From NCBI GenBank assembly GCA_030038015.1, contig JASHPR010000593.1, forward strand, positions 1-45,440: a stretch of 45,440 bases of DNA. Direction: 5' to 3'. Position 1 is the first letter of the stretch; every line of letters starts with the position of its first letter. A program made the position numbers and the translations under genes. The notes under the pieces were generated by a model. It saw nothing but the letters and a program-made list of their open reading frames with translations. It searched no databases and was not told the DNA's origin. The DNA comes from Streptosporangiaceae bacterium (GTDB lineage Bacteria > Actinomycetota > Actinomycetes > Streptosporangiales > Streptosporangiaceae). Positions 312-44,276 of this stretch are shown one piece after another.

Positions 312-1238
312 ATGACGAACGGGTACGCGGCGCCGCTGCTGGGCTGGTACGCCCGGCACGCCCGCGACCTGCCGTGGCGCCGCCCTGGCGCGTCGGCCTG
401 GTCGGTGCTGGTGAGCGAGATCATGCTGCAGCAGACGCCGGTGTCGCGCGTGCTGCCCGCGCACGAGCGGTGGCTGGCTCGCTGGCCGGGCCCGCCCTCG
501 CTCGCCGCCGCGTCCCCCGGCGACGCCGTGAGGCAATGGGGGCGGCTTGGCTACCCGCGCCGGGCCCTCTGGCTGCACGCCACCGCCCGGATCCTGACCG
601 AACGCCACGGCGGCGAGGTCCCCGACTCCGTTCAGGTGCTGCGCGGCCTCCCCGGGGTGGGCAGCTACACCGCCGCCGCGGTGGCGAGCTTCGCCTTCGG
701 GCAGCGGCACGCGGTCCTGGACACGAACGTGCGCCGGGTCCTCGCCCGGCTGGTGCGGGGGACCGAGCTGCCGCCCCGCAGCACGACGGCGGCCGAGATC
801 GAGCTGGCCGAGTCGCTGCTTCCCGCGTCGCCAGCGCGGGCGGCGCGCTGGTCGGTGGCCGTGATGGAGCTGGGGGCGCTCGTCTGCACAGCCGCCAGGC
901 CGGACTGCGCGGGCTGCCCGGTCGCGAGCCGGTGTGCATGGCGGCGCGCCGGGAGCCCCGCGGCACCGGCGCGCCCGGCCTCCCAGCGCTACCTGGGCAC
1001 TGACCGCGAGTGCCGCGGGCGGCTGCTCGGCGTTCTGCGGCAGTCGGCCGGCCCGGTCCCGGCGGCCAGCCTGGATGCCGTCTGGCCCGATGCGGCGCAG
1101 CGGGCGCGGGCGCTGCGCGCGCTGGTCGCCGACGGCCTGGCCACCGCCCTGGGGCAGCAGATGTACGCGCTGCCGGGCCACCCGGGGCCGGCGCATCCGC
1201 CCCCGGACACGCCCGCGCCCGGTCACCGTGTCGGGTGA
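312..1238 (+). CDS. mutY: A/G-specific adenine DNA glycosylase (MutY)
   Basis: ORF 243..1238. I place the start at ATG 312 (MTNGYAAPLLGWY), with AAGGA 11 nt upstream. HhH-GPD signature present (SEIMLQQT, LPGVGSYTAAAV, LDTNVRRV). 4Fe-4S loop C-x6-C-x2-C-x5-C present (CTAARPDCAGCPVASRC). Confidence 0.85.
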   Translation: MTNGYAAPLLGWYARHARDLPWRRPGASAWSVLVSEIMLQQTPVSRVLPAHERWLARWPGPPSLAAASPGDAVRQWGRLGYPRRALWLHATARILTERHGGEVPDSVQVLRGLPGVGSYTAAAVASFAFGQRHAVLDTNVRRVLARLVRGTELPPRSTTAAEIELAESLLPASPARAARWSVAVMELGALVCTAARPDCAGCPVASRCAWRRAGSPAAPARPASQRYLGTDRECRGRLLGVLRQSAGPVPAASLDAVWPDAAQRARALRALVADGLATALGQQMYALPGHPGPAHPPPDTPAPGHRVG

Positions 1239-1273
1239 CCGGGCGCGGGATCGCCGATCTGGCGGCCTGCCGG

Positions 1274-3838
<2,565 letters not shown>

Positions 3839-4017
3839 CTCGTCGCTCCCTCACAGGGCGGTAGGGGGAGGCGCACAAAATGCTGCCCCTTCCTCCGCAT
3901 CGTAGCCGGTGCGCCGGGCGACGCCTTGCGTGCGATGTGTCACAGGTGTAAAACGTTCCCCGGCGGCAGGCGGTTCATCCCATAAAACCCAGGCCAGGGG
4001 GGCAGTGTTCCCCGCTA

Positions 4018-4748: not shown

Positions 4749-4928
4749 GGGGAGCCAGCCTTTCTGCTGAGCAAGCTATTAGGGAGTCGCTAAAACATAT
4801 ACCAGAACTCTTGCTTCTGCCAATTCGGGCTACAAGGATTCGTGCCATGAGTTGCCGCATCGCGAGTGCATGGCGGCAATCTGGAAGATGGTCGTAACTC
4901 TCCGTAATCAGCCTGGGCGCGCACGCAG

Positions 4929-5144
4929 TCAATCGGCGCGAGATGTGCCGGCATCATCAGAGTGCGCAGTCGCTTGGCTGCGCGCGCTATCCGGAATCCC
5001 GCTGTCACGGGAAATATCGCCAGACTCATCGCGATCGCGACGCCTACGGGGCCCCATCTCATGACGCAGGAAGGCGGCAACGGCGATGAGGAATGCGGCG
5101 CACATGAGAAGGGGCGGCGTAAGCACGGTCAGGTCGCTCAGCAT
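4929..5144 (-). CDS. small hypothetical membrane protein (71 aa), possibly frameshifted
   Basis: ATG 5144 is preceded by a strong SD (GGGAGGTGA, 8-nt spacer). The first 30 codons (MLSDLTVLTPPLLMCAAFLIAVAAFLRHEM) have about 80% GC3 and form one TM helix. After codon 30 the GC3 drops. A second TM-like segment (WGPVGVAIAMSLAIFPVTAGF) appears in the adjacent frame (ORF 4790..5080). Confidence 0.3.
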   Translation of the reverse strand: MLSDLTVLTPPLLMCAAFLIAVAAFLRHEMGPRRRRDRDESGDISRDSGIPDSARSQATAHSDDAGTSRAD

Positions 5145-5342
5145 CAGGCTCACCTCCCTACCTGTTACGCCCAGGGCTAGCCACGCTCCGGGCGAGCTGG
5201 CGGCGCCTGCCCATGACGCGGGCCGACGCACAGCTCCCTCATTGCATTCTGGCCGACCGCGCGGGGGAACTGGCCGCCGACCCCGGGCCCCGGCTCGGGT
5301 AAATCGCGAAAACTGCGGCGGCCCCGCCGCAACCGCCCCGTC

Positions 5343-5365
5343 CTGTCGGCACGCAGTGGCAGTAT
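5343..5365 (+). promoter_or_regulatory. RecA-NDp (PafBC-type DNA-damage) promoter-like motif upstream of the PHP-helicase gene
   Basis: cTGTCGGca-8 nt-CAGTAT, compared with the actinobacterial RecA-NDp consensus tTGTCRgtg-8nt-TAnnnT (from memory). The core TGTCGG and the 8-nt spacer match. The -10 element has A2 and T6 but C at position 1. It lies 51 nt upstream of ATG 5416. Confidence 0.25.
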
Positions 5366-5415
5366 CGGAACGGCCACGCGGGCAGGCAATAACGGGAGAA
5401 GCGGACGACAACGGT

Positions 5416-8400
5416 ATGTTCCACGCTGACCTGCACATTCACTCCAGGTTCTCCCGCGCTTGCAGCAGGGACTGTGATCTGGAGCATCTGGCCTGGTGGG
5501 CGCGGCGTAAGGGGATCACCGTCGTGGGAACGGGCGACTTCACGCACCCAGGATGGGCCGAGGAACTGAGGGAATCGCTGGTCCCGGCCGAGCCGGGCCT
5601 GTTCAGGCTCAGCCAGGAGGCCGAGGGCCGGCTGCGGAGGGCCTCGTCTCCCAGCTGCGCCGGCGACGTGCGGTTCATGCTTTCCGCAGAGATATCGACG
5701 ATCTACCGGGGCGGAGACCGGACGAGGAAAGTCCACCATCTGCTCTACGCCCCGACATTCGAGGCGGCAGACCGCATCACCCGGGCTCTATCGAAGATCG
5801 GCAACCTGGCGTCGGACGGGCGGCCGATCCTCGGCCTGGACTCGCGCCATCTTCTCGAGATCGCGCTCGACGGCGGGCCGGGCTGCTACCTGGTTCCTGC
5901 GCACGCGTGGACGCCCTGGTTTGCGGTGCTGGGATCTAAATCAGGCTTCGATCTCGTGGCGGAGTGCTACGGGGATCTGGCAGGCGAAGTATTCGCGATC
6001 GAGACCGGTTTGTCGTCAGATCCGCCCATGAACTGGAGGTGCTCGTCGCTCGATGGCTATCGGCTGGTGAGCAACTCGGACGCGCATTCACCGCCTATGC
6101 TGGGGCGCGAGGCCACTACCTTCAGCACCGCGCTGGATTACTTCGCGATGGCCGGCGCCCTGCGCACCGGCGACGGCCTGGCGGGCACGATCGAGTTCTA
6201 TCCAGAAGAAGGCAAGTACCACCTCGACGGTCACCGGAAATGCGGCGTGCGCTTTGAGCCCGCGCAGAGCAGCGAGCACGAAGGAGCCTGCCCGGAGTGC
6301 GGCAAGCCGCTCACCATCGGAGTGCTGCATCGGGTCACTGAGCTCGCCGACAGGCCCGCCGGCTATCGGCCGCCCGGCGCGCCCGGATTCCGGAACTTGG
6401 TTCAACTGCCGCAGATAATCGGGGAAATAATGGCCACCGGGCCGAAGAGCAAGAAAGTCAGTCACGAAGTCAGCAGGCTCGTGGCTGAGCTCGGCCCCGA
6501 GATCGGCATCCTCACCGAGGCGGGCGCGGACGACCTGCGCCGGGCGGGCGGCAGCCTCCTGGCGGAGGCCGTGGCCCGGCTGCGCCGTGGCGAGGTACGG
6601 CGCGAGGCCGGGTACGACGGTGAGTACGGGATCATCTCGTTGTTCGGCCCGGGGGAGCTGGATGGCGCCGACGCGCTCTTCGACCTGGCCGGCCCGGCCA
6701 CAGCGCAGGGAAGGCGGCCGGGAAAGCACGCAGAGCTTCCCGCTGCGCCGCCGCATGCGGCATCTTCCGCCGAGAGGCCCCCGCATGCCGCATCTTCCGG
6801 CGAGAGGCCGCCGCATGCCGGATCTTCCGGCGAGTGGCCCCCGCATGCCGCATCTTCCGGCGTGCGGAAGCGGAGAGGGGCCGGGCAGCCGCGGCGCCTC
6901 TCGGATGACCGCCCAGGCCGTGACCCCGACCCGGATCAGCTGGCGGCGGCCAGGGCTGGCAGCCCGCTGATGATCATCGCCGGACCGGGAACCGGCAAGA
7001 CGCGCACGCTGGCCGACCGGATCGCGCGCCAGATCGCTGGCTCGCCGGGCGCGCCGCGGTCCCATCTGGCGATCACATTCACCCGGCGTGCCGCCGCGGA
7101 GATGCGCACCAGGCTGGCCGCCGTGCTCCCGGCCGCGGTGCACCTGAGCGCCGGGGAACCCGCCGCGGCCGGCCCGGCCGGGCGGCCGGCCGTCACGGTC
7201 ACCACTTTCCACGGGCTCGGCCTGATGATCCTCCGGGAGCACCACGAGGCGGCGGGCCTGTCCGCCGGCTTCCGCATCGCCGACGACGCGGAACGGCTCG
7301 AGGTCGCCGCCGAACTCGCGGGCTCGGCCAGGGAAGGCAGGCGGCTGCTCGCCGAGGCAGCCGGCGACCCGGTCACCAGGGAGAAGCTGGTCAAGGCGCT
7401 CGCGTCCCGTGACCTGGTCGACTTCGACGGCCTCATCGAGCTGCCGGTGGCGCTGCTGACCGCGGAGCCTGCGCTCGCCGGGTCGCTGCGCGAACGCTGG
7501 CCGCTGATCAGTGTCGATGAGTACCAGGACATCGATGCCGCCCAGCACCGCCTGCTGCGGCTGCTGGCCGGCGACGGGCGCGGGCTGACCGTGATCGGTG
7601 ATCCAGACCAGGCGATCTACGGCTTCCGGGGCGCCGACGTGGGCCTGTTCCTCCGTTTCGGCAGCGATTACCCGGGCGCGGTTACCCGGCAGCTGACCCG
7701 GAACTACCGATCGAGCCCTGCCATCGTCGGCGGCGGCCTCCAGGTCATAGCGCCCGCCTCGCTGGTGCCCGGGCGGGCTCTGCGGCCCGCCGCGCGGCGG
7801 GCACCGGCTGCAGCGGCGTTAATCGGCTTTCACGAAGCGGCCGACGAGCGCGGCGAGGCCGGCTGGATCGCCCGCGAAGCCGAGCGGCTGCTCGGCGGGG
7901 CGTCCTTCCACGCACTGGACACCGGCCGCGCCGGGGAGCCCGGCCACGAGGGTCTCGGCCTGTCCGACATCGCCGTCCTCTACCGGGCCGACGCCCAGGC
8001 GGAGCCGATCGGCCAGGCCCTGACGCGCGCTGGCCTGCCGTTCCAGAAGAGCTCGCACGACCTGCTCGAACGGCGGACCGGCGTGCCCGGCATCGTCAGG
8101 GAGATGCGGCTGGCGAGCGGGGGCGCCGGTGCCGCCGCGGACAGGGCCACCGCCGCGGGCAGCGCCGCGGTCGCGGACAGGCTGCGCCGCGCGGTGCGCA
8201 CGCTTGCGGAGCGGGCTGCGGACCCCGCGGGAGCGGTTGACGTGCGCGCGGCGGGCGAGGTCCTCGCCCCGCTCGCCCGCCAGTGCGGCAGCGACCTGGA
8301 GCGTTTCCTCACCGAGATCTCGCTGGGCGCCGAGGCCGACGCGCTCGACCCCAGGGCGGACGCGGTCACGCTGCTGACCCTGCACGCCGCCAAGGGCCTG

Positions 8401-8709
8401 GAGTTCGAAGTTGTGTTCCTGGCCGGCTGTGAGAAAGGCCTCCTGCCGCTGCGCCTGCCGGGGAGCGGTGCGATGACCGACGCGGACGCGGCCGAAGAGC
8501 GCAGGCTGCTATTCGTCGGGATGACCAGGGCGCGGTCACGGCTGTACCTGACCTGCGCGAGCCGGCGGAGATGGCGCGGCAGCACCCGCGAGGCCGGCCC
8601 GTCGCCGTTCCTGGCCGCGATCGATCCGGCCCTGCTCGACCGGTCAGAGCCTGCGCGGCGGCGGAACGCGCCTGCCCGCGATGGCGCCCGGCAGCTCAGG
8701 CTGCTCTGA
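5416..8709 (+). CDS. fusion protein: EndoQ-like (TIGR00375-type) PHP-domain nuclease + UvrD/PcrA-type SF1 DNA helicase
   Basis: ORF 5086..8709. Start placed at ATG 5416 (MFHADLHIHS). N-terminal half has PHP metal-ligand motifs: HADLHIHS, GTGDFTHP, PAHAWTPWFAVLGSKSGFD, ETGLSSDP, SNSDAHS. These are followed by YPEEGKYHLDGHRKC...CPECGKPLTIGVLHR (Zn-ribbon). C-terminal half has SF1 motifs: I AGPGTGKT, Ia ITFTRRAAAEM, II VDEYQD, III VIGDPDQAIYGFRGA, IV RNYRS, V LHAAKGLEFEVVFL, VI FVGMTRARSRL. One continuous high-GC3 frame. Confidence 0.85.
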   Translation: MFHADLHIHSRFSRACSRDCDLEHLAWWARRKGITVVGTGDFTHPGWAEELRESLVPAEPGLFRLSQEAEGRLRRASSPSCAGDVRFMLSAEISTIYRGGDRTRKVHHLLYAPTFEAADRITRALSKIGNLASDGRPILGLDSRHLLEIALDGGPGCYLVPAHAWTPWFAVLGSKSGFDLVAECYGDLAGEVFAIETGLSSDPPMNWRCSSLDGYRLVSNSDAHSPPMLGREATTFSTALDYFAMAGALRTGDGLAGTIEFYPEEGKYHLDGHRKCGVRFEPAQSSEHEGACPECGKPLTIGVLHRVTELADRPAGYRPPGAPGFRNLVQLPQIIGEIMATGPKSKKVSHEVSRLVAELGPEIGILTEAGADDLRRAGGSLLAEAVARLRRGEVRREAGYDGEYGIISLFGPGELDGADALFDLAGPATAQGRRPGKHAELPAAPPHAASSAERPPHAASSGERPPHAGSSGEWPPHAASSGVRKRRGAGQPRRLSDDRPGRDPDPDQLAAARAGSPLMIIAGPGTGKTRTLADRIARQIAGSPGAPRSHLAITFTRRAAAEMRTRLAAVLPAAVHLSAGEPAAAGPAGRPAVTVTTFHGLGLMILREHHEAAGLSAGFRIADDAERLEVAAELAGSAREGRRLLAEAAGDPVTREKLVKALASRDLVDFDGLIELPVALLTAEPALAGSLRERWPLISVDEYQDIDAAQHRLLRLLAGDGRGLTVIGDPDQAIYGFRGADVGLFLRFGSDYPGAVTRQLTRNYRSSPAIVGGGLQVIAPASLVPGRALRPAARRAPAAAALIGFHEAADERGEAGWIAREAERLLGGASFHALDTGRAGEPGHEGLGLSDIAVLYRADAQAEPIGQALTRAGLPFQKSSHDLLERRTGVPGIVREMRLASGGAGAAADRATAAGSAAVADRLRRAVRTLAERAADPAGAVDVRAAGEVLAPLARQCGSDLERFLTEISLGAEADALDPRADAVTLLTLHAAKGLEFEVVFLAGCEKGLLPLRLPGSGAMTDADAAEERRLLFVGMTRARSRLYLTCASRRRWRGSTREAGPSPFLAAIDPALLDRSEPARRRNAPARDGARQLRLL
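6751..6863 (+). repeat. in-frame 30-bp tandem repeat (about 3.8 copies) in the linker of the PHP-helicase ORF
   Basis: Units start at 6751, 6781, 6811 and 6841 (CCGCATGCSGSATCTTCCGSCGAGWGGCCS). They encode the decapeptide PHAASSxERP repeated: PPHAASSAERPPHAASSGERPPHAGSSGEWPPHAASSG. Confidence 0.95.
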
Positions 8710-9589: not shown

Positions 9590-9743
9590 ACCCGCCGAGT
9601 TCCTGGCGCGCGGAAACGTGTTCCGGGGAGCCGGGGACCCATCCTCCCCGGGGTGAATCGGCCGGCCGCGGTTTGCTCTGGCAGATCGCGTCGGCCGTAG
9701 GGCTGCTCCGGCCCGAACCCGTCAGCTAACCCGGTAGGCGGCC
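9590..9743 (+). promoter_or_regulatory. cyclic-di-AMP riboswitch (ydaO/yuaA class)
   Basis: Conserved blocks in the canonical order: CGCCGAGUUC, GGGGAGCCGGGGACCCA, CCGGGGUGAAUC, and CCCGAACCCGUCAGCUAACCCGGUAGGCGG. The last is nearly identical to the B. subtilis ydaO 3' block ACCCGAACCCGUCAGCUAACCUCGUAAGCG. P1 is possible between CCGCC 9592-9596 and GGCGG 9737-9741. The SD AGGAGAGGAG starts 4 nt after P1. Confidence 0.85.
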
Positions 9744-9761
9744 TAGGAGAGGAGACTCCAC

Positions 9762-10811
9762 GTGGAGTTCTTGCCATATCGCAGATCCGGCAAGACGAAT
9801 TCACGGGGTGTTCGTGCCCGCGCGAGCGCACGGCGGGTGTGGGCTAGGGTCGGCGTTCTCGCCAGCGCGGCCACGCTGGTCAGCTTCGCGCTCCCCAGCG
9901 GGATCGGCAGTGCCGACCAGGTAAGCACGCCCAAGAGCCTGAACCAGCTCGTGGCCGAGGCGAACGCGCTCTCCAACCAGATCGACGTGCTGAGCCAGCA
10001 GTACGACGCGCTCAAGATCCAGCTGACCGAGGCACGCGCCGAGGCCGCGATCGCGAGGCAGACGGCACAGCGTGACGAGCAGGCGCTCGGCGCCGGGCAG
10101 ACGCAGGTGGGCCAGATCGCCGCCGAGGGCTACATGATGGGCGCCCTGAACCCGACCATCGAGCTGCTGCAGACCCCGAACCCGCAGCTGTTCCTGAACC
10201 GAGCGTCGATCATGCTGCAGCTGCAGCACCAGCAGGGCGGCACGATGAGCCTGCTGCAGTCTGCCGAGGACGCCGCCAACCGGGCCAAGCAGACCGCGAC
10301 CCAGGAGGCAAGCCAGGCAGCCGAGCTGGCCGCGGCGATGAACGCGAAGGTAAGCCAGATCCAGGCCAAGGAGAACGTGCTGAACAGCGCGGCGTTCAGC
10401 CAGGCCCTGGCGATCTTCCAGCAGACCGGGAGCTACCCCAATATCCAGGTCTCCGGTGACACGCTCGGCGAGCAGGCCCTCAGGTTCGCGCTGACCAGGA
10501 TCGGCGACCCTTACGTCTGGGGCGGTGCCGGGCCCGACGACTTCGACTGCTCCGGCCTGGTGATGTGGGCCTACGCCCAGGTCGGGATCAGCCTCGAGCA
10601 CTTCACCGGCGACCAGTGGAACGAGGGCGAGCACATCTCCCGCAGCCAGCTCGAGCCCGGTGACCTGGTGTTCTTCTTCGCCGACATCAGCCACGTCGGC
10701 CTGTACGTCGGCAACGGCATGATGGTGGACGCGCCCACCTTCGGCCAGGATGTGCAGATCCAGCCGGTGATGTGGGACGTGTACGTGGGAGCCGTCCGGA
10801 TCGTCGCCTGA
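9762..10811 (+). CDS. secreted NlpC/P60 (C40) peptidoglycan endopeptidase with RipA-like coiled-coil N-domain
   Basis: GTG start 7 nt after the SD. Signal peptide VLASAATLVSFALPSGIGSADQ. Long Q/A-rich coiled-coil region. C-terminal catalytic domain GDPYVWGGAGPDDFDCSGLVMWAY...ISHVGLYVGNGMMVDAP (Cys/His). Confidence 0.9.
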   Translation: MEFLPYRRSGKTNSRGVRARASARRVWARVGVLASAATLVSFALPSGIGSADQVSTPKSLNQLVAEANALSNQIDVLSQQYDALKIQLTEARAEAAIARQTAQRDEQALGAGQTQVGQIAAEGYMMGALNPTIELLQTPNPQLFLNRASIMLQLQHQQGGTMSLLQSAEDAANRAKQTATQEASQAAELAAAMNAKVSQIQAKENVLNSAAFSQALAIFQQTGSYPNIQVSGDTLGEQALRFALTRIGDPYVWGGAGPDDFDCSGLVMWAYAQVGISLEHFTGDQWNEGEHISRSQLEPGDLVFFFADISHVGLYVGNGMMVDAPTFGQDVQIQPVMWDVYVGAVRIVA

Positions 10812-10852
10812 CGCCCACGCTAGAGCGCGCCGCCCGCCAGGACGGCACACCG

Positions 10853-10900
10853 ATGAATGAACCATAGGTGGGGTTATAACCCTATTGGCGGTACATTCAT
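10853..10900 (+). terminator. long imperfect hairpin 42 nt after the NlpC/P60 stop (possible terminator or RNA stability element)
   Basis: 48-nt dyad centred on GGGTTA|TAACCC (10871-10882). 17/24 Watson-Crick pairs, plus 4 G.U pairs that exist only in the plus-strand RNA (21/24). No U-tract follows. Confidence 0.3.
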
Positions 10901-10942
10901 GGCGCGCGAGCGTGCGGGGCACAGCCACAACGCGGGACAGGT

Positions 10943-11200
10943 GTGACTATACGGGTCGATGTGGCCAATGCGGCTGGCGGAGTGCTCGGCGGCGGCCCCG
11001 GCCTGAGCGACCCCTGCGCCACGGCCGGCCCGGACGCCACCCGCGTGGACCTCACGCACCGGCACCTCGAGCGCTGCGGCCCGGAGGCCGGGCGGATGCG
11101 CAGGATCCTCGACGGCAAGGGCGGCGAGCCGCTGCAAGCCCTCGCCCGGCACATCGCCGCCGGGCGCCAGCCGGATAGCCAGCAAGCCCCAGCCAGGTAA
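10943..11200 (+). CDS. hypothetical protein (85 aa), no recognisable family
   Basis: GTG start. About 85% GC3, which is the coding signature in this genome. The TAA stop lies 10 nt before the VOC gene ATG and overlaps its SD (TAAGGGAG), suggesting co-transcription. No motif recognised. Confidence 0.35.
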   Translation: MTIRVDVANAAGGVLGGGPGLSDPCATAGPDATRVDLTHRHLERCGPEAGRMRRILDGKGGEPLQALARHIAAGRQPDSQQAPAR

Positions 11201-11210
11201 GGGAGCAACG

Positions 11211-11600
11211 ATGCCGTTCATGTCCGTGATGCCCAACCTGTACGCGGCCGACGTCGAGCGCGCGGCCGCCTTCTACCGCGACCTGCTCGGCGGCACGCAG
11301 ACCTTCCGGACCCCAGCGGACGGGCCGGCCGAGCACGTGGAGCTGCGCATCGGCGACGTCGTCATCGCGCTCAGCAGCTGCGACGCCGTGCAGCGGCAAG
11401 GGCTGCCGGCACCGGAGCACGGTCATCCGATGGAGCTCGTGGTGGAGTGCGACTCGGCCGACCGCGCGGTGGCCGCCCTGCGTGCCGCCGGGACGCCGGT
11501 CCTGGCCGAGGCGTACAGTCATCCCGCCGGGCATCGCCGGGCCTACGTCGCCGACCCCGACGGCAACTGGGTCGCGCTGGTGAGCAAGGAGGGCGCGTAG
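11211..11600 (+). CDS. VOC family protein (glyoxalase/bleomycin-resistance fold)
   Basis: 129 aa. MPNLYAADVERAAAFYRDLLGG...HVELRIGDVVIAL...RRAYVADPDGNWVALV is the typical paired beta-alpha-beta-beta-beta module pattern. Confidence 0.75.
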   Translation: MPFMSVMPNLYAADVERAAAFYRDLLGGTQTFRTPADGPAEHVELRIGDVVIALSSCDAVQRQGLPAPEHGHPMELVVECDSADRAVAALRAAGTPVLAEAYSHPAGHRRAYVADPDGNWVALVSKEGA

Positions 11601-11636
11601 GCAGGCAGGGCGTGGCGCGAGCGCCAGGCCCGCCCG

Positions 11637-13127
11637 TCATTCCGGCCGGACGGTCGGGAACAGGATCGTCTCCCTGATGCTCGCCCCGGTGAGCATGATC
11701 AGCAGCCGGTCGATGCCCATCCCCATGCCGCCGCTCGGCGGCATGCCGTACTCCAGCGCCCGCAGGAAGTCCTCGTCGAGCTGCATCGCCTCCGGGTCCC
11801 CGCCCGCGGCCAGCAGCGACTGCGCGGTCAGCCGCTGCCGTTCCTGGACGGGGTCCACCAGCTCGCTGTAGCCGGTGCCGATCTCCGCGCCGAACGCGAC
11901 CAGGTCCCACCGCTCGGCCAGCCTCGGGTCGGACCGGTGCTCCCTCGTCAGCGGGGACACCTCGACCGGGAAGTCGCGGTAGAAGACCGGCTCCACGGTG
12001 CGCGCCTCGACCAGGCGCTCATACAGCTCGAACAGCACCTGGCCGCGGTTCCACTTCGGGTCCTGGTGGATGCCGGCCCCGGCGGACAGCCGGCGCAGCG
12101 TCTCCTCGGGGGTATCGGGGGTGATCTCCTCGCCGAGCGCCAGGGACACCGCCTCGTGCACGCCCACCCAGGGCCATTCGCCGCCGATGTCGTACTCGGA
12201 GCCGTCCGGCCGGCGCACGACGGTGCTGCCCAGCGCGGCGACGGCGGCCGACTGGATCAGCTCCCTGGTCAGGGTGCCGATCGTGTGGTAATCGCCGTAG
12301 GCCTCGTAGGCCTCGAGCATGGTGAACTCGGGGTTGTGCGTCGCGTCGGCGCCCTCGTTGCGGAAGATCCGGCCGATCTCGTAGACCTTCTCGATACCCC
12401 CGACCACCAGCCGCTTCAGGTAGAGCTCGAGCGCGATCCGCAGGTACAGCTGGATGTCGTAGGCGTTGCTGCGGGTGGTGAACGGCCTGGCGTTCGCTCC
12501 GCCGTGCAGGACCTGCAGCACCGGCGTCTCCGCCTCGAGGAAGCCGCGGGCGTGCAGTTCCTCGCGCAGCGACCTGGTGACGGCCGCGCGCCGCTCCGCC
12601 ATCTGGCGGGCGGCCGGGTTGATGATCAGGTCAACGTAGCGCTGCCGCACCCGCGCCTCTGGGTCGCTCAGCCCGGCCCGCTTGTCCGGCAGCGGCCGCA
12701 GGGCCTTGGAGATGATCGCGAACGAATCGGCGAGCACCGAGAGCTCCCCGGATCGCGACGAGATCACCTCGCCCTCGACCCCGATGTGGTCGCCCAGGTC
12801 CACGTCGCTCTTCCAGGCGGCGAGCGCCTGCTCACCGACCCGGTCGAGCGAGATCATGGCCTGGATGTCGCCGGTGCCGTCCCTGATCGTCGCGAAGCAC
12901 AGCTTCCCGCCGTTGCGGTTGAGCATCACCCGGCCGGTGACACCGACGCGCTGGCCGGTCGCGGCGCCTGGCTCCAGGTCCGGATACTTAGCCCGGATTT
13001 CGCCGATCGTGGCCGTGCGCGGGTAGCTGACCGGGTACGGGTCGGTGCCGGCTGCGCGCAGCCGGTCGAGCTTGGCCCGGCGCACCTGCATCTGCTCGGG
13101 CAGCTTCTCCTGATCGTCGTCCGCCAC
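11637..13127 (-). CDS. lysS: lysine--tRNA ligase (class II)
   Basis: 496 aa. OB-fold anticodon-binding region (GRVMLNRNGGKLCFATIRDGTGDIQ). Class II motifs FLEAETPVL, IGRIFRNEG and the motif 3 region GMGIDRLLMLLTG. Confidence 0.95.
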   Translation of the reverse strand: MADDDQEKLPEQMQVRRAKLDRLRAAGTDPYPVSYPRTATIGEIRAKYPDLEPGAATGQRVGVTGRVMLNRNGGKLCFATIRDGTGDIQAMISLDRVGEQALAAWKSDVDLGDHIGVEGEVISSRSGELSVLADSFAIISKALRPLPDKRAGLSDPEARVRQRYVDLIINPAARQMAERRAAVTRSLREELHARGFLEAETPVLQVLHGGANARPFTTRSNAYDIQLYLRIALELYLKRLVVGGIEKVYEIGRIFRNEGADATHNPEFTMLEAYEAYGDYHTIGTLTRELIQSAAVAALGSTVVRRPDGSEYDIGGEWPWVGVHEAVSLALGEEITPDTPEETLRRLSAGAGIHQDPKWNRGQVLFELYERLVEARTVEPVFYRDFPVEVSPLTREHRSDPRLAERWDLVAFGAEIGTGYSELVDPVQERQRLTAQSLLAAGGDPEAMQLDEDFLRALEYGMPPSGGMGMGIDRLLIMLTGASIRETILFPTVRPE

Positions 13128-13189
13128 CTGCCAGAGATTACCGGCCCCGGCCGAGCGCGAGCACCGGGGTTTGCGCTCAGCCCGCCGGC

Positions 13190-13232
13190 GGCGGGCGGGC
13201 GGCGGCGGGCGGGCGGGCGGCGGGATGCGGGC
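13190..13232 (+). repeat. G-tract array (seven GGG runs, (GGGC)n-like), potential G-quadruplex
   Basis: GGG runs at 13193, 13197, 13207, 13211, 13215, 13222 and 13229, with 1-7 nt loops. It lies between the CoA-transferase stop (13236) and the lysS start (13127). An adjacent hairpin GCCCGCC-GGC-GGCGGGC sits at 13180-13196. Confidence 0.6.
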
Positions 13233-13235
13233 CGG

Positions 13236-14426
13236 CTAGTCCGCCAGCAAGATACCCGCTCTTGTCAGCGCGGCAATTGCAGGCTGGTCAAGCCCGAGCC
13301 AGTCGACAAGCGCCTCGGTGTTGTGCTGGCCTCGCCGCGGCGCCGGACGGCGAACCGACGGCTGAGCGCCGGAGAAGCTGTAGGGCAGGCCGGCCACCCG
13401 GCGCTCGCTGCCTGGAACCGGGACCGAATGCGCTCCGCCAGCGAATACGTCCTCGCTGCGGCGAACCTCGCCCCACGCGATTCCGGCCGACTCGAGCTCG
13501 GCCAGCAGGCAGTCTCTGTCGGTAAAGCCGTTCATCCAGTCCTGGATCGCCTGCTGGCGAAGCCGCACCTTGGTAGGCAGATCGCTGCCGGGCGGCGCCG
13601 GGTCCGCTACGAGGCCGCGGCGGGACAGCATTGCCCAGGCATGCTTGGGCGGGGCGGCTATCAGCAGCGGACCGCCGGGCGCCTGCCACATCGTTCCGCG
13701 CGAGCTGTATTCCTCACCGGTTGCGTCCAGGAGCGCGTGCGCATGGTCGTCGCTGACGGCCACTGCCGCCAGCATGCTCAGGTCGATGTGCTGGCCGATG
13801 CCGGTTACTGCCCGCTGGTGCAGCGCGGCCAGCAAGGCCACCACGGCGTGCAGAGCGCTCAGCGTGTCGGCGAGTGCGAGCGGAAGGTCGGAAGGTTGCC
13901 TGCCGTCGAGCTCGGCATGCCGGGCGAGGAGCCCGGACTCGGCGTGGATCACGGGCGCCAGGGCACGTCGCTGGGCGTCGGCGCCGTCGGGTCCGAAACC
14001 GGACACCGACAGCATGATGAGGGCCGGGTTGACTGCCGACAGCTGCTGATAGCCGAGGCCGAGCCGGTCCATGACGCCAGGGCGGAAGTTCTCGATCAGC
14101 ACGTCGGCGCGACAGGCGAGGTCAGCGACGAGCTTCGCCGCACCCGGCACGGACAGGTCTACCGCGACGCTTCGCTTGCCCGCGTTCATCTGAGCGAACA
14201 TCCCTGATCTGCCGTCCCTGACGACACCGAAGTGCTCGGTCACGTCGGTACGCGGACCCTCGATCCGCACTACATCCGCGCCGAGATCAGCAAGGATGCG
14301 CGCGGCGTAAGGCCCAGAGATCGCCTGTGACATGTCGAGCACGAGCCAGGCCGGCAGCGGCGGGCTGCCAGCCAGGTTAGCTGCGTCGTCTTGGGTCACT
14401 GTGGCGAGTCCATACCGGCTGCGCAT
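13236..14426 (-). CDS. CaiB/BaiF family (class III) CoA-transferase
   Basis: ORF 13236..14651. Start moved to ATG 14426 (MRSRYGLATV; GTG 14399 is also possible). The family N-terminus is VLDMSQAISGPYAARILADLGADVVRIEGP. Later motifs: ENFRPGVMDRLGLGY and SVSGFGPDG. Confidence 0.8.
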   Translation of the reverse strand: MRSRYGLATVTQDDAANLAGSPPLPAWLVLDMSQAISGPYAARILADLGADVVRIEGPRTDVTEHFGVVRDGRSGMFAQMNAGKRSVAVDLSVPGAAKLVADLACRADVLIENFRPGVMDRLGLGYQQLSAVNPALIMLSVSGFGPDGADAQRRALAPVIHAESGLLARHAELDGRQPSDLPLALADTLSALHAVVALLAALHQRAVTGIGQHIDLSMLAAVAVSDDHAHALLDATGEEYSSRGTMWQAPGGPLLIAAPPKHAWAMLSRRGLVADPAPPGSDLPTKVRLRQQAIQDWMNGFTDRDCLLAELESAGIAWGEVRRSEDVFAGGAHSVPVPGSERRVAGLPYSFSGAQPSVRRPAPRRGQHNTEALVDWLGLDQPAIAALTRAGILLAD

Positions 14427-44178: not shown

Positions 44179-44252
44179 CGGGGTGTAGCGCAGCTTGGCA
44201 GCGCGCTTCGTTCGGGACGAAGAGGCCGCCGGTTCAAATCCGGCCACCCCGA
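44179..44252 (+). tRNA. tRNA-Pro (anticodon CGG)
   Basis: 74-nt cloverleaf folded by hand. Acceptor CGGGGTG/CACCCCG. D arm GCGC-AGCTTGGCA-GCGC. Anticodon arm CTTCG-TTCGGGA-CGAAG. Variable loop AGGCC. T arm GCCGG-TTCAAAT-CCGGC. Discriminator A. No encoded CCA. Confidence 0.93.
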
Positions 44253-44276
44253 CCCAGGTCAGAGGACTGTTTCTCA

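Follow-up and report, generated by a model that had tools for sequence, protein, structure and literature searches.

A single-reading-frame fusion of an EndoQ-like PHP nuclease to a UvrD/PcrA-type helicase in a Streptosporangiaceae genome: a candidate clamp-tethered enzyme for the repair of deaminated and abasic DNA

Results

A complete gene for an EndoQ-helicase fusion

A 45,440-nucleotide stretch of a Streptosporangiaceae bacterium genome (GenBank assembly GCA_030038015.1, contig JASHPR010000593.1, positions 1 to 45,440; hereafter the window) contains, at 5416-8709 on the forward strand, a complete gene for a protein of 1,097 residues in which an endonuclease Q (EndoQ)-like PHP nuclease and a UvrD/PcrA-type superfamily 1 (SF1) helicase are joined in a single open reading frame (ORF). 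An earlier note, made from the DNA sequence, had proposed this fusion and we confirmed it: Pfam, the TIGR00375 profile and sequences in the PDB identify the two halves, an AlphaFold2 (AF2) model searched with Foldseek recovers both folds, and the halves share one stop-to-stop ORF at 76 of 81 loci (the window plus 80 loci from a scan of species-representative genomes, which are independent assemblies from many phyla; all 81 encode the EndoQ module). The motifs that the note had quoted were all found where it had placed them in the translation of 5416-8709. The extent of the gene was established from the ORF listing, a check of the translation and homologues aligned over residues 1-1097. Its stop-to-stop frame runs from 5086 to 8709 (+) and, within this frame, the choice of the ATG at 5416 as start is backed by more than 100 homologues whose alignments begin at residue 1 and reach 100% coverage (consensus MxFxADLHIHS; MFHADLHIHS in the window). 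The identity of the domains, their intact active sites, the one-ORF architecture, the conservation of motifs and the chromosomal context are all matters of direct observation.

The features of the gene, all on the forward strand, are as follows. An EndoQ PHP catalytic domain occupies 5416-6201 (residues 1-262, delimited by alignment to Pyrococcus furiosus EndoQ, PfuEndoQ, and modeled with a predicted local distance difference test score, pLDDT, above 90), and is followed by an EndoQ Zn-binding domain at 6202-6402 (residues 263-329, aligned to PfuEndoQ 239-303), with a His-Cys3 site formed by H273, C276, C292 and C295, and by an EndoQ C-terminal helical domain at 6403-6681 (residues 330-422, aligned to PfuEndoQ up to residue 381), in which the sequence GYDGEYG at residues 399-405 provides an anchor. 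At the end of this domain is the internal motif DALFDL (6670-6687, residues 419-424), a degenerate clamp-type motif of the form (G)QxxLF. A disordered linker of variable length (6682-6915, residues 423-500, pLDDT below 50), which carries a tandem repeat, leads into the UvrD/PcrA-like SF1A helicase (6916-8652, residues 501-1079), whose limits come from Pfam, sequence and fold matches in the PDB, and motif coordinates. The protein closes with a basic, disordered tail (8653-8706, residues 1080-1097) that ends in QLRLL (8692-8706), a putative β-sliding-clamp-binding motif.

The AF2 model of the whole protein (pLDDT 86.2) has two well-folded bodies, with disorder at residues 423-500 and 1080-1097. 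It was built from 66 diverse sequences; an earlier model, built from 75 sequences that were 71-93% identical, reached a pLDDT of 58.6 and was discarded. In Foldseek searches of the PDB the two halves matched separately, one to EndoQ and the other to UvrD-type helicases, and no solved chain spanning both halves was found there.

The EndoQ module

The N-terminal half matches the TIGR00375 profile with an E-value of 2.3e-39 and 135.8 bits, which is less than the curated NCBIfam cut-off of 326.6 and marks it as a member of a divergent subfamily and not as an equivalog. The generic PHP model PF02811 had no match to the protein even at E<=10, and the only related matches were weak ones to PHP_C and Zn-ribbon models. 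Hence the earlier assignment of this half to PHP/TIGR00375 held for TIGR00375, albeit below its cut-off, and failed for PF02811. That PF02811 is scoreless while TIGR00375, the EndoQ sequences in the PDB and the EndoQ fold all match identifies the half as specifically EndoQ rather than as some PHP domain. PfuEndoQ (PDB 5zb8) aligns over query residues 4-408 (its residues 5-381) with an E-value of 3.7e-40 and about 29% identity, and the fold matches 5zb8 and 7k30 with an E-value of about 1e-30, a target-normalized TM-score (TMt) of 0.88-0.90 and a root-mean-square deviation of 2.4 Å. Those superpositions take in the Zn-binding and helical DNA-binding domains, both of which are present. On the alignments and the model, then, residues 1-422 are a complete EndoQ module.

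The motifs of the PHP domain are DLHIHS (residues 5-10), PAHAWTPWF (161-169), ETGLSSDP (196-203) and SNSDAHS (219-225). To place functional residues we took their roles from the crystallographic and mutagenesis studies of PfuEndoQ, in which H8, H10, E76, H84, R114, H139, D193 and H195 are essential (PMC5961232) and the pocket and steric-gate residues include H139, G169 and S171 (PMC8307549). The metal ligands H8, H10, E76, H84, H139 and D193 correspond to H7, H9, E92, H107, H163 and D222 of the window protein, the other essential residues R114 and H195 to R136 and H224, and the wedge residue W144 to W168. For the pocket and steric gate, T142, E167, G169, L170, S171 and N191 correspond to T166, E196, G198, L199, S200 and N220, and the pocket for the deaminated base also takes in H139 (window H163). 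The sole change in the pocket is PfuEndoQ L168 to T197, at a residue that gives main-chain contacts. Among 118 representatives (39-69% identity) the metal ligands, R136, H224 and most of the pocket residues are invariant and W168 is nearly so; N220 is listed as invariant only in a close clade of 75 sequences, within which all the mapped functional residues of the PHP domain are invariant.

The Zn-binding domain differs in one ligand. Its motif YHLDGHRKC...CPECGK (residues 268-297) has a His where PfuEndoQ has C249 as the first Zn ligand, giving a His-Cys3 site versus the Cys4 site of the archaeal and Bacillales EndoQ proteins. The YHxDGHRxC form is present at 62 of 64 fusion loci and is thus a clade-wide substitution, and it is plausible that the His-Cys3 site binds zinc.

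The helicase half

The C-terminal half matches PF00580 (3e-54), PF13361 (4e-31) and PF13245, the first two above their cut-offs. Its nearest solved relatives by sequence are Deinococcus radiodurans UvrD (4e-65), Escherichia coli UvrD, PcrA, Mycobacterium tuberculosis UvrD1 and Rep (to 2e-47), and by fold it matches UvrD, PcrA and Rep with an E-value of about 1e-39 and a TMt of 0.62-0.72, sharing their 1A/1B/2A/2B four-subdomain organization. The description of this half as a compact but complete SF1 helicase was borne out: motifs Q, I, II, III, IV, V and VI were individually located and are intact, motif Ia was not separately located, and the 2B region is short. The motifs include GPGTGKT (residues 523-529), DEYQD (701-705), GDPDQAIYGFRG (728-739), NYRS (763-766), TLHAAKGLEF (988-997) and FVGMTRAR (1033-1040). 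The Walker A residues K528 and T529 and R765 are invariant in the 118 representatives, and the DExQD box and R1038 of motif VI are nearly invariant.

Two parts of a typical UvrD are reduced. The 2B region comprises about 94 residues (about 880-973) versus about 170 in D. radiodurans UvrD, making it about 75 residues shorter, which appears in the alignment as query 385-478 against 385-554 of the D. radiodurans protein. In addition, the AF2 model has nothing folded after residue ~1079, with about 27 disordered residues past motif VI, so that the C-terminal Tudor-like domain with which UvrD and PcrA bind partners is absent. Profile searches of the protein did not find a C-terminal PD-(D/E)xK nuclease domain. 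Residues 501-1079 are a UvrD/PcrA-like SF1A helicase with a shortened 2B, for which we predict, by analogy with its relatives, an ATP-driven 3'->5' polarity. In Rep and UvrD the 2B domain exerts autoinhibition, and we speculate that its shortening could leave the motor active without an external activator.

The equivalog scores of this half were 295 bits against a cut-off of 911 for PcrA and 237 and 231 bits against 1144 and 951 for the other two models (UvrD, Rep). Since it fails these cut-offs as well as that of TIGR00375, the window protein belongs to a distinct long-EndoQ family and is an orthologue of neither characterized enzyme; for the same reason the substrate specificity and polarity of those enzymes are not simply transferable to it.

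The linker and the integrity of the fusion

The linker contains, as the earlier note had seen, a repeat: Tandem Repeats Finder (TRF) placed it in frame at 6747-6862 (+), with a period of 30 bp, 3.9 copies, 90% matches and a score of 190, and its unit is exactly ten codons, encoding (PPHAASSGER)n. The repeat is genome-specific, and P0002, a homologue with 90% identity, carries one copy as against about four in the window. Close homologues have linker regions of anything between 75 and 172 residues. The ten-codon unit, the variation in copy number, the variable length of the region and the disorder of residues 423-500 in the AF2 model together indicate an in-frame expansion within a flexible linker.

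Could the fusion nevertheless be an artefact, either two genes merged by a misassembly or frameshift at the repeat or a decaying pseudogene? The tandem repeat does lie near the junction and a few related metagenome-assembled genomes (MAGs) have broken ORFs, but this reading is already refuted by the single ORF, which was seen in more than 120 protein clusters as well as at 76 of the 81 loci, by the in-frame ten-codon unit, by the intact catalytic residues of both halves and by the breaks themselves, which are scattered and in no case at the junction. The census that gave these figures included a whole-protein query, which recovered at least 120 full-length clusters at the 90% identity level (1,035-1,197 residues, 65-90% identity, full coverage). 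Five loci lack a single ORF and three more have internal breaks, due to frameshifts or stops at scattered sites away from the junction. Broken fusion genes were recorded at L018, L049, L055, L061, L062, L070 and L078 (at about 9,800-13,400 in each locus); most are in long-read "MFD" MAG assemblies and look like sequencing errors or occasional pseudogenization. We also considered whether these represent a natural two-gene form of the protein and rejected it because of the scatter of the breaks and their prevalence in long-read MAGs.

Clamp-type motifs

A feature that the earlier note had missed is the conserved C-terminal QLRLL. It fits the QL[SD]LF consensus for binding the β sliding clamp and sits in the disordered tail (pLDDT below 50). 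All 75 sequences of the close clade have Q1093, L1094, R1095 and L1096, and a Q[LM]xL[FL] motif is present within the last 12 residues of 79 of 124 full-length 50%-identity representatives (at the very end in 56 of them). Other 12-residue windows of these proteins contain it in 0.1% of cases, which makes the enrichment about 600-fold. The clamp-type tail is kept at 59 of 64 complete loci from named genomes of at least eight phyla, its bearers including Actinomycetota, Planctomycetota, Verrucomicrobiota, Alpha- and Deltaproteobacteria, Myxococcota, Elusimicrobiota, Melainabacteria, Bacteroidota and others. We infer that the tail docks the protein on the β sliding clamp.

A second motif of this type is internal. 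Of 145 representatives, 73 have a QxxL[FL] sequence corresponding to (G)QxxLF, which in 65 lies at an offset of +22 from the GYDGEYG anchor; its frequency in background windows is 1.7%. In the clade of the window this motif has decayed to DALFDL, of which L421 and F422 are invariant among close relatives. Short bacterial EndoQ proteins end where the fusions have the internal motif, which would fit a fusion descended from a short EndoQ that bound the clamp.

Distribution and genomic context

With the EndoQ module as query, 3,786 clusters at 50% identity were recovered at E<=1e-3 and 1,101 at E<=1e-30. Almost all of the nearest 150 clusters are about 1,000-1,200 residues long or are fragments that already include helicase motifs, and 124 of these 150 representatives, found by the EndoQ query alone, have at least 950 residues. 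Named carriers span at least eight phyla, with identity between phyla of about 50%; this, with a distribution that is patchy across phyla, suggests horizontal transfer over long timescales. Cultured carriers include Salinactinospora qingdaonensis JCM 17137, Phytoactinopolyspora halophila YIM 96934 and Streptomyces sp. 6N223 and, from a list published in 2016, Zymomonas mobilis, Geobacter metallireducens and Desulfovibrio vulgaris (PMC4858679).

In the window the fusion gene has as neighbors clpC, lsr2, GNAT, NlpC/P60, glyoxalase and lysS genes, all confirmed with Pfam. The earlier note had placed the gene in a variable slot beside lsr2, a view that the comparison overturned: about 18-20 Streptosporangiales-like genomes, that of S. 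qingdaonensis among them, preserve the arrangement clpC-lsr2-[gene]-GNAT-NlpC/P60-lysS. In the closest genome, an uncultured Actinomycetota MAG (locus L008) whose ClpC is 98% identical, the identity of the fusion is 79% when measured on the best full-length segment and 91% for the EndoQ module, values within the range of its neighbors (78-98%). All-against-all clustering of the flanking ORFs of the 81 loci found no partner gene shared across phyla, the synteny being at clade level only. The G+C content at third codon positions is 0.86 in the fusion gene (5416-8706; 0.83 in the EndoQ part and 0.90 in the helicase part), 0.92-0.96 in clpC, GNAT, NlpC/P60 and lysS, and 0.75 in lsr2. We considered this difference as a signal of horizontal transfer and set it aside as mild and too weak. 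A scan for sigma-70 promoters and terminators was uninformative.

Several other features of the window and the compared loci deserve mention. Between lsr2 and the fusion gene, and divergent from the latter, is a small conserved ORF of about 71 codons (about 4929-5144, reverse strand) whose product begins MLSDLTVLTPPLLMCAAFLIAVAAFLRHEMG and consists of one hydrophobic helix and then an acidic tail; it is present at 18 syntenic loci including the window. A c-di-AMP (ydaO-type) riboswitch, RF00379, lies at 9599-9756 (+), with 66.7 bits versus a gathering threshold of 38, directly upstream of the NlpC/P60 cell-wall hydrolase gene (9762-10811). Long ORFs of 486-991 codons at 1010-3985 (+), 6088-7548 (-) and 11937-14207 (+) lie antisense to clpC, the fusion gene and lysS, respectively; they are typical of the spurious frames of a genome of about 70% G+C, have no family support and overlap well-supported genes. 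The sole tRNA gene in the window is a tRNA-Pro (anticodon CGG) at 44179-44254 (+). Outside the actinobacteria, Brevibacillus laterosporus NZ_CP011075.1 has a standalone 393-residue EndoQ (L081, 2989-4170, +) in the order NUDIX hydrolase-endoQ-spoIIM-fur-xerD; this 733-kb record is labeled a plasmid and its gene content looks chromosomal.

Discussion

Relation to known proteins

The family to which the window protein belongs has been in the literature for some years. Archaeal EndoQ binds the clamp PCNA via a C-terminal PCNA-interacting peptide (PIP) box and is stimulated by it, and the study that reported this also noted bacterial homologues with β-clamp motifs (PMC4858679; Shiraishi et al., 2016, Sci Rep 6:25532). 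Its Supplementary Figure S1 tabulates 44 bacterial homologues, ten of them short (405-464 residues, with QxxLF at the end) and 34 long (945-1,244 residues, with QLxLF at the end). Long examples are those of Rhodococcus rhodnii (WP_037252411, 1,021 residues), Saccharopolyspora spinosa (WP_029535017, 1,037 residues), Geobacter metallireducens, Desulfovibrio vulgaris and Zymomonas mobilis (PMC4858679). These long homologues resemble the window protein in size class, in EndoQ homology, in a QLxLF-type C-terminus and in including actinobacterial members and, judged by length, motif and taxonomy and not by alignment, they and the window protein are almost certainly the same family. The 2016 paper presents the long forms as a motif table and none was expressed or assayed there; the word "helicase" is absent both from it (PMC4858679) and from the 2018 structure paper (PMC5961232).

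Reviews up to 2024 describe EndoQ as archaeal plus "a few bacteria", and JGI names the homologues now "DNA helicase II/PcrA", now "uncharacterized protein (TIGR00375 family)". Our full-text search of the literature found an EndoQ-helicase fusion neither described nor assayed; a 2017 study that lay outside the search (Shiraishi, BBB 81:931), and that may describe this architecture, reportedly sorted EndoQ into three families "by domain organization". The long EndoQ family has, then, been catalogued since 2016 and never characterized in the literature searched, which speaks against the possibility that the architecture is an already characterized, widespread repair enzyme. Because the family had already been catalogued, what the window contributes is one more member and a reasoned mechanism rather than a new kind of system.

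Comparison with better known proteins shows what is shared and what is not. The archaeal enzymes of P. furiosus and Thermococcus kodakarensis (PDB 5ZB8, 7K30-7K33) have the same three-domain fold, the same catalytic, wedge and pocket residues and a clamp-docking peptide on a disordered C-terminal extension, of which the tail of the window protein is the putative counterpart; they differ in being standalone (424 residues), their Zn site is Cys4 and their clamp peptide is a PIP box that binds PCNA, whereas the window protein has a His-Cys3 site, a fused helicase and a β-clamp-type motif. Bacillales EndoQ is known as the enzyme of Bacillus pumilus and B. subtilis, and that of B. pumilus is reported to nick DNA containing deoxyuridine (dU), deoxyinosine (dI) or an apurinic/apyrimidinic (AP) site as the archaeal enzyme does. 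The Bacillales counterpart in B. laterosporus (WP_031414379, named "endonuclease Q family protein" by PGAP) is about 28% identical to the EndoQ module of the window and, unlike the window protein, is of 393 residues, has a Cys4 site and lacks both a helicase and a terminal clamp motif. UvrD, PcrA and Rep share the SF1A motifs and four-subdomain fold of the helicase half, but the nickase with which they work is recruited, whereas that of the window protein is covalently attached. NucS/EndoMS of the Actinomycetota is, similarly, an archaeal-type repair endonuclease that is recruited by way of a C-terminal β-clamp-binding peptide, although its PD-(D/E)xK fold is unrelated, it cuts both strands at mismatches and it lacks a helicase. 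Finally, AddAB, AdnAB, RecBCD and the GajB protein of Gabija also combine a UvrD-like motor with a nuclease, and the helicase half matches them by sequence and fold. The nucleases of AddA, RecB and AdnB are, however, C-terminal PD-(D/E)xK domains and that of Gabija is the separate TOPRIM protein GajA, and these systems act on DNA ends or foreign DNA; the nuclease of the window protein is an N-terminal EndoQ/PHP module, without a PD-(D/E)xK domain or a GajA-like partner.

A proposed mechanism

What would an EndoQ gain from a helicase of its own? We propose that the window protein repairs dU, dI and AP lesions by a "nick-and-unwind" route while tethered to the clamp, a reading to which we give a probability of roughly 60% and which is drawn largely by analogy with characterized enzymes; the substrate range, the position of the nick, the polarity of the helicase, the strand on which it loads and the binding of the clamp are all predicted on that basis. 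The C-terminal tail would tether the enzyme to β clamps on chromosomal DNA, as the PIP box of archaeal EndoQ does to PCNA. The EndoQ module would then flip out dU, dI/hypoxanthine or an AP site and nick the adjoining phosphodiester on its 5' side, so that one end has a 3'-OH and the other a 5'-phosphate and the lesion. The attached helicase would load at the nick on the undamaged strand and translocate 3'->5', peeling off the lesion-bearing strand as a 5' flap or single-stranded DNA and, in doing so, would also dislodge the EndoQ module from its product. A polymerase could extend the 3'-OH, and a flap or 5'-3' nuclease and a ligase would finish the repair.

The rationale for the fused motor comes from two directions. 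UvrD and PcrA are known to act downstream of a nickase, and in such pairs (MutH/MutL-UvrD, UvrC-UvrD, RepD-PcrA) the helicase displaces the nicked strand likewise. Additionally, PfuEndoQ stays on its nicked product and shows single-turnover behavior (PMC5961232), so that product release is limiting and a motor that clears the product would be of use. The earlier note had suggested a self-contained repair module for deaminated bases, and that suggestion is plausible and gains strength from the conservation of the lesion pocket and from the β-clamp-type tail.

A number of our observations weigh against this proposal and must be set beside it. The relative geometry of the two halves in the AF2 model is without confidence (predicted TM-score 0.58), the first Zn ligand is a His in place of a Cys, and the case for clamp binding is a motif of five residues. 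Scores well under the equivalog cut-offs for TIGR00375 and for PcrA, UvrD and Rep are a further caution, and the patchy spread across phyla is unusual for a core repair protein. Among the 81 loci none of the repair genes polA, ligA, dnaN, recJ and ung is a conserved neighbor. Neither an SOS/LexA box (GAAC-N4-GTTC) nor a RecA-NDp/PafBC motif is present in the upstream region 4749-5415, and the counts of both motifs across the window are at the level of chance; no feature of the gene's surroundings links it to a repair regulon. Biochemical or genetic data on any long-form member were not found in the literature that we searched.

The alternative that fares best keeps the two activities and couples them differently. 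The helicase might, instead of being an excision motor, be a lesion-scanning translocase or one that clears EndoQ or other proteins off the DNA, or it might unwind upstream of the nick along the nicked strand, opening a gap for long-patch or recombinational processing at forks. UvrD-family enzymes are generally known to displace proteins as translocases as well, the limiting product release of PfuEndoQ would be relieved in this manner too, the long flexible linker permits loading on either strand and the short 2B suggests altered regulation. The loading strand is not discriminated by sequence, but removal of the undamaged strand upstream of the nick would leave the lesion in place, and cuts in single-stranded DNA at forks would risk double-strand breaks; we regard such a coupling as unlikely.

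More doubtful still is a role in defense, which the earlier note had offered as its alternative: an anti-phage or foreign-DNA nuclease-helicase in which the EndoQ module recognizes invading DNA that contains uracil or is non-canonical in some other way, which the helicase then unwinds or degrades processively in the manner of Gabija or other helicase-nuclease defense proteins. An antiviral role has been proposed for Bacillus EndoQ in a review (PMC8307549), the patchy distribution suggests horizontal transfer, the gene adjoins the xenogeneic silencer gene lsr2, and PADLOC returned matches to its GajB models. These PADLOC matches were, however, generic UvrD-type ones, typical of any UvrD-like helicase, and the EndoQ half had no specific match to a defense family. 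No GajA-like or other conserved partner accompanies the gene, no signature of a defense island or mobile element was seen at the locus, and its position is stable among housekeeping genes in the related genomes. A search of 50,697 phage records gave no match, and a search of plasmids gave a single match, to the chromosome-like Brevibacillus locus. The β-clamp-type tail, moreover, points to host replication and repair, and on this evidence the foreign-DNA alternative largely fell away.

A last functional alternative, that the N-terminal half is a general phosphoesterase or 3'-5' exonuclease of the PHP type and the whole an end-processing helicase-nuclease like AddA, RecB or AdnB, appears very improbable: PolX- and DnaE-type PHP domains are indeed exonucleases or phosphoesterases and the Foldseek matches of the helicase half include AdnAB, AddAB and RecBCD as well, but the match covers the whole three-domain EndoQ architecture rather than a bare PHP barrel, generic PF02811 is scoreless, the lesion pocket and wedge residues are conserved, and the C-terminal PD-(D/E)xK nucleases of AddA, RecB and AdnB were not found here in the Pfam search.

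Implications for the long EndoQ family

If the clamp-tethered nick-and-unwind enzyme is taken as the working model for the window protein, a wider and more tentative proposal can be made for its family, one that we put forward as somewhat short of an even chance. The long EndoQ-helicase proteins may constitute a distinct, single-polypeptide, β-clamp-coupled nick-and-unwind excision pathway for deaminated bases and abasic sites, spread over many phyla, in which many members have two clamp peptides, one internal and one terminal, that engage both protomers of the β dimer. The internal peptide would have been inherited from the short clamp-binding EndoQ ancestor and the terminal one would be new, and together they could occupy both β protomers. 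Its carriers would include soil actinomycetes, planctomycetes, myxobacteria, gut Melainabacteria and termite Endomicrobia.

In mismatch repair, nucleotide excision repair and rolling-circle replication, the strand is removed by a UvrD or PcrA that is recruited separately. If our proposal is right, a single protein coupled to the replication clamp would recognize the lesion, incise the DNA and remove the strand, with these three steps hard-wired together, and EndoQ would no longer be an "archaeal curiosity" but a mainstream bacterial enzyme of alternative excision repair. The long EndoQ proteins would thus provide a testable model for how EndoQ-initiated repair is completed, as well as a natural system in which to study the coupling of a nickase to a helicase.

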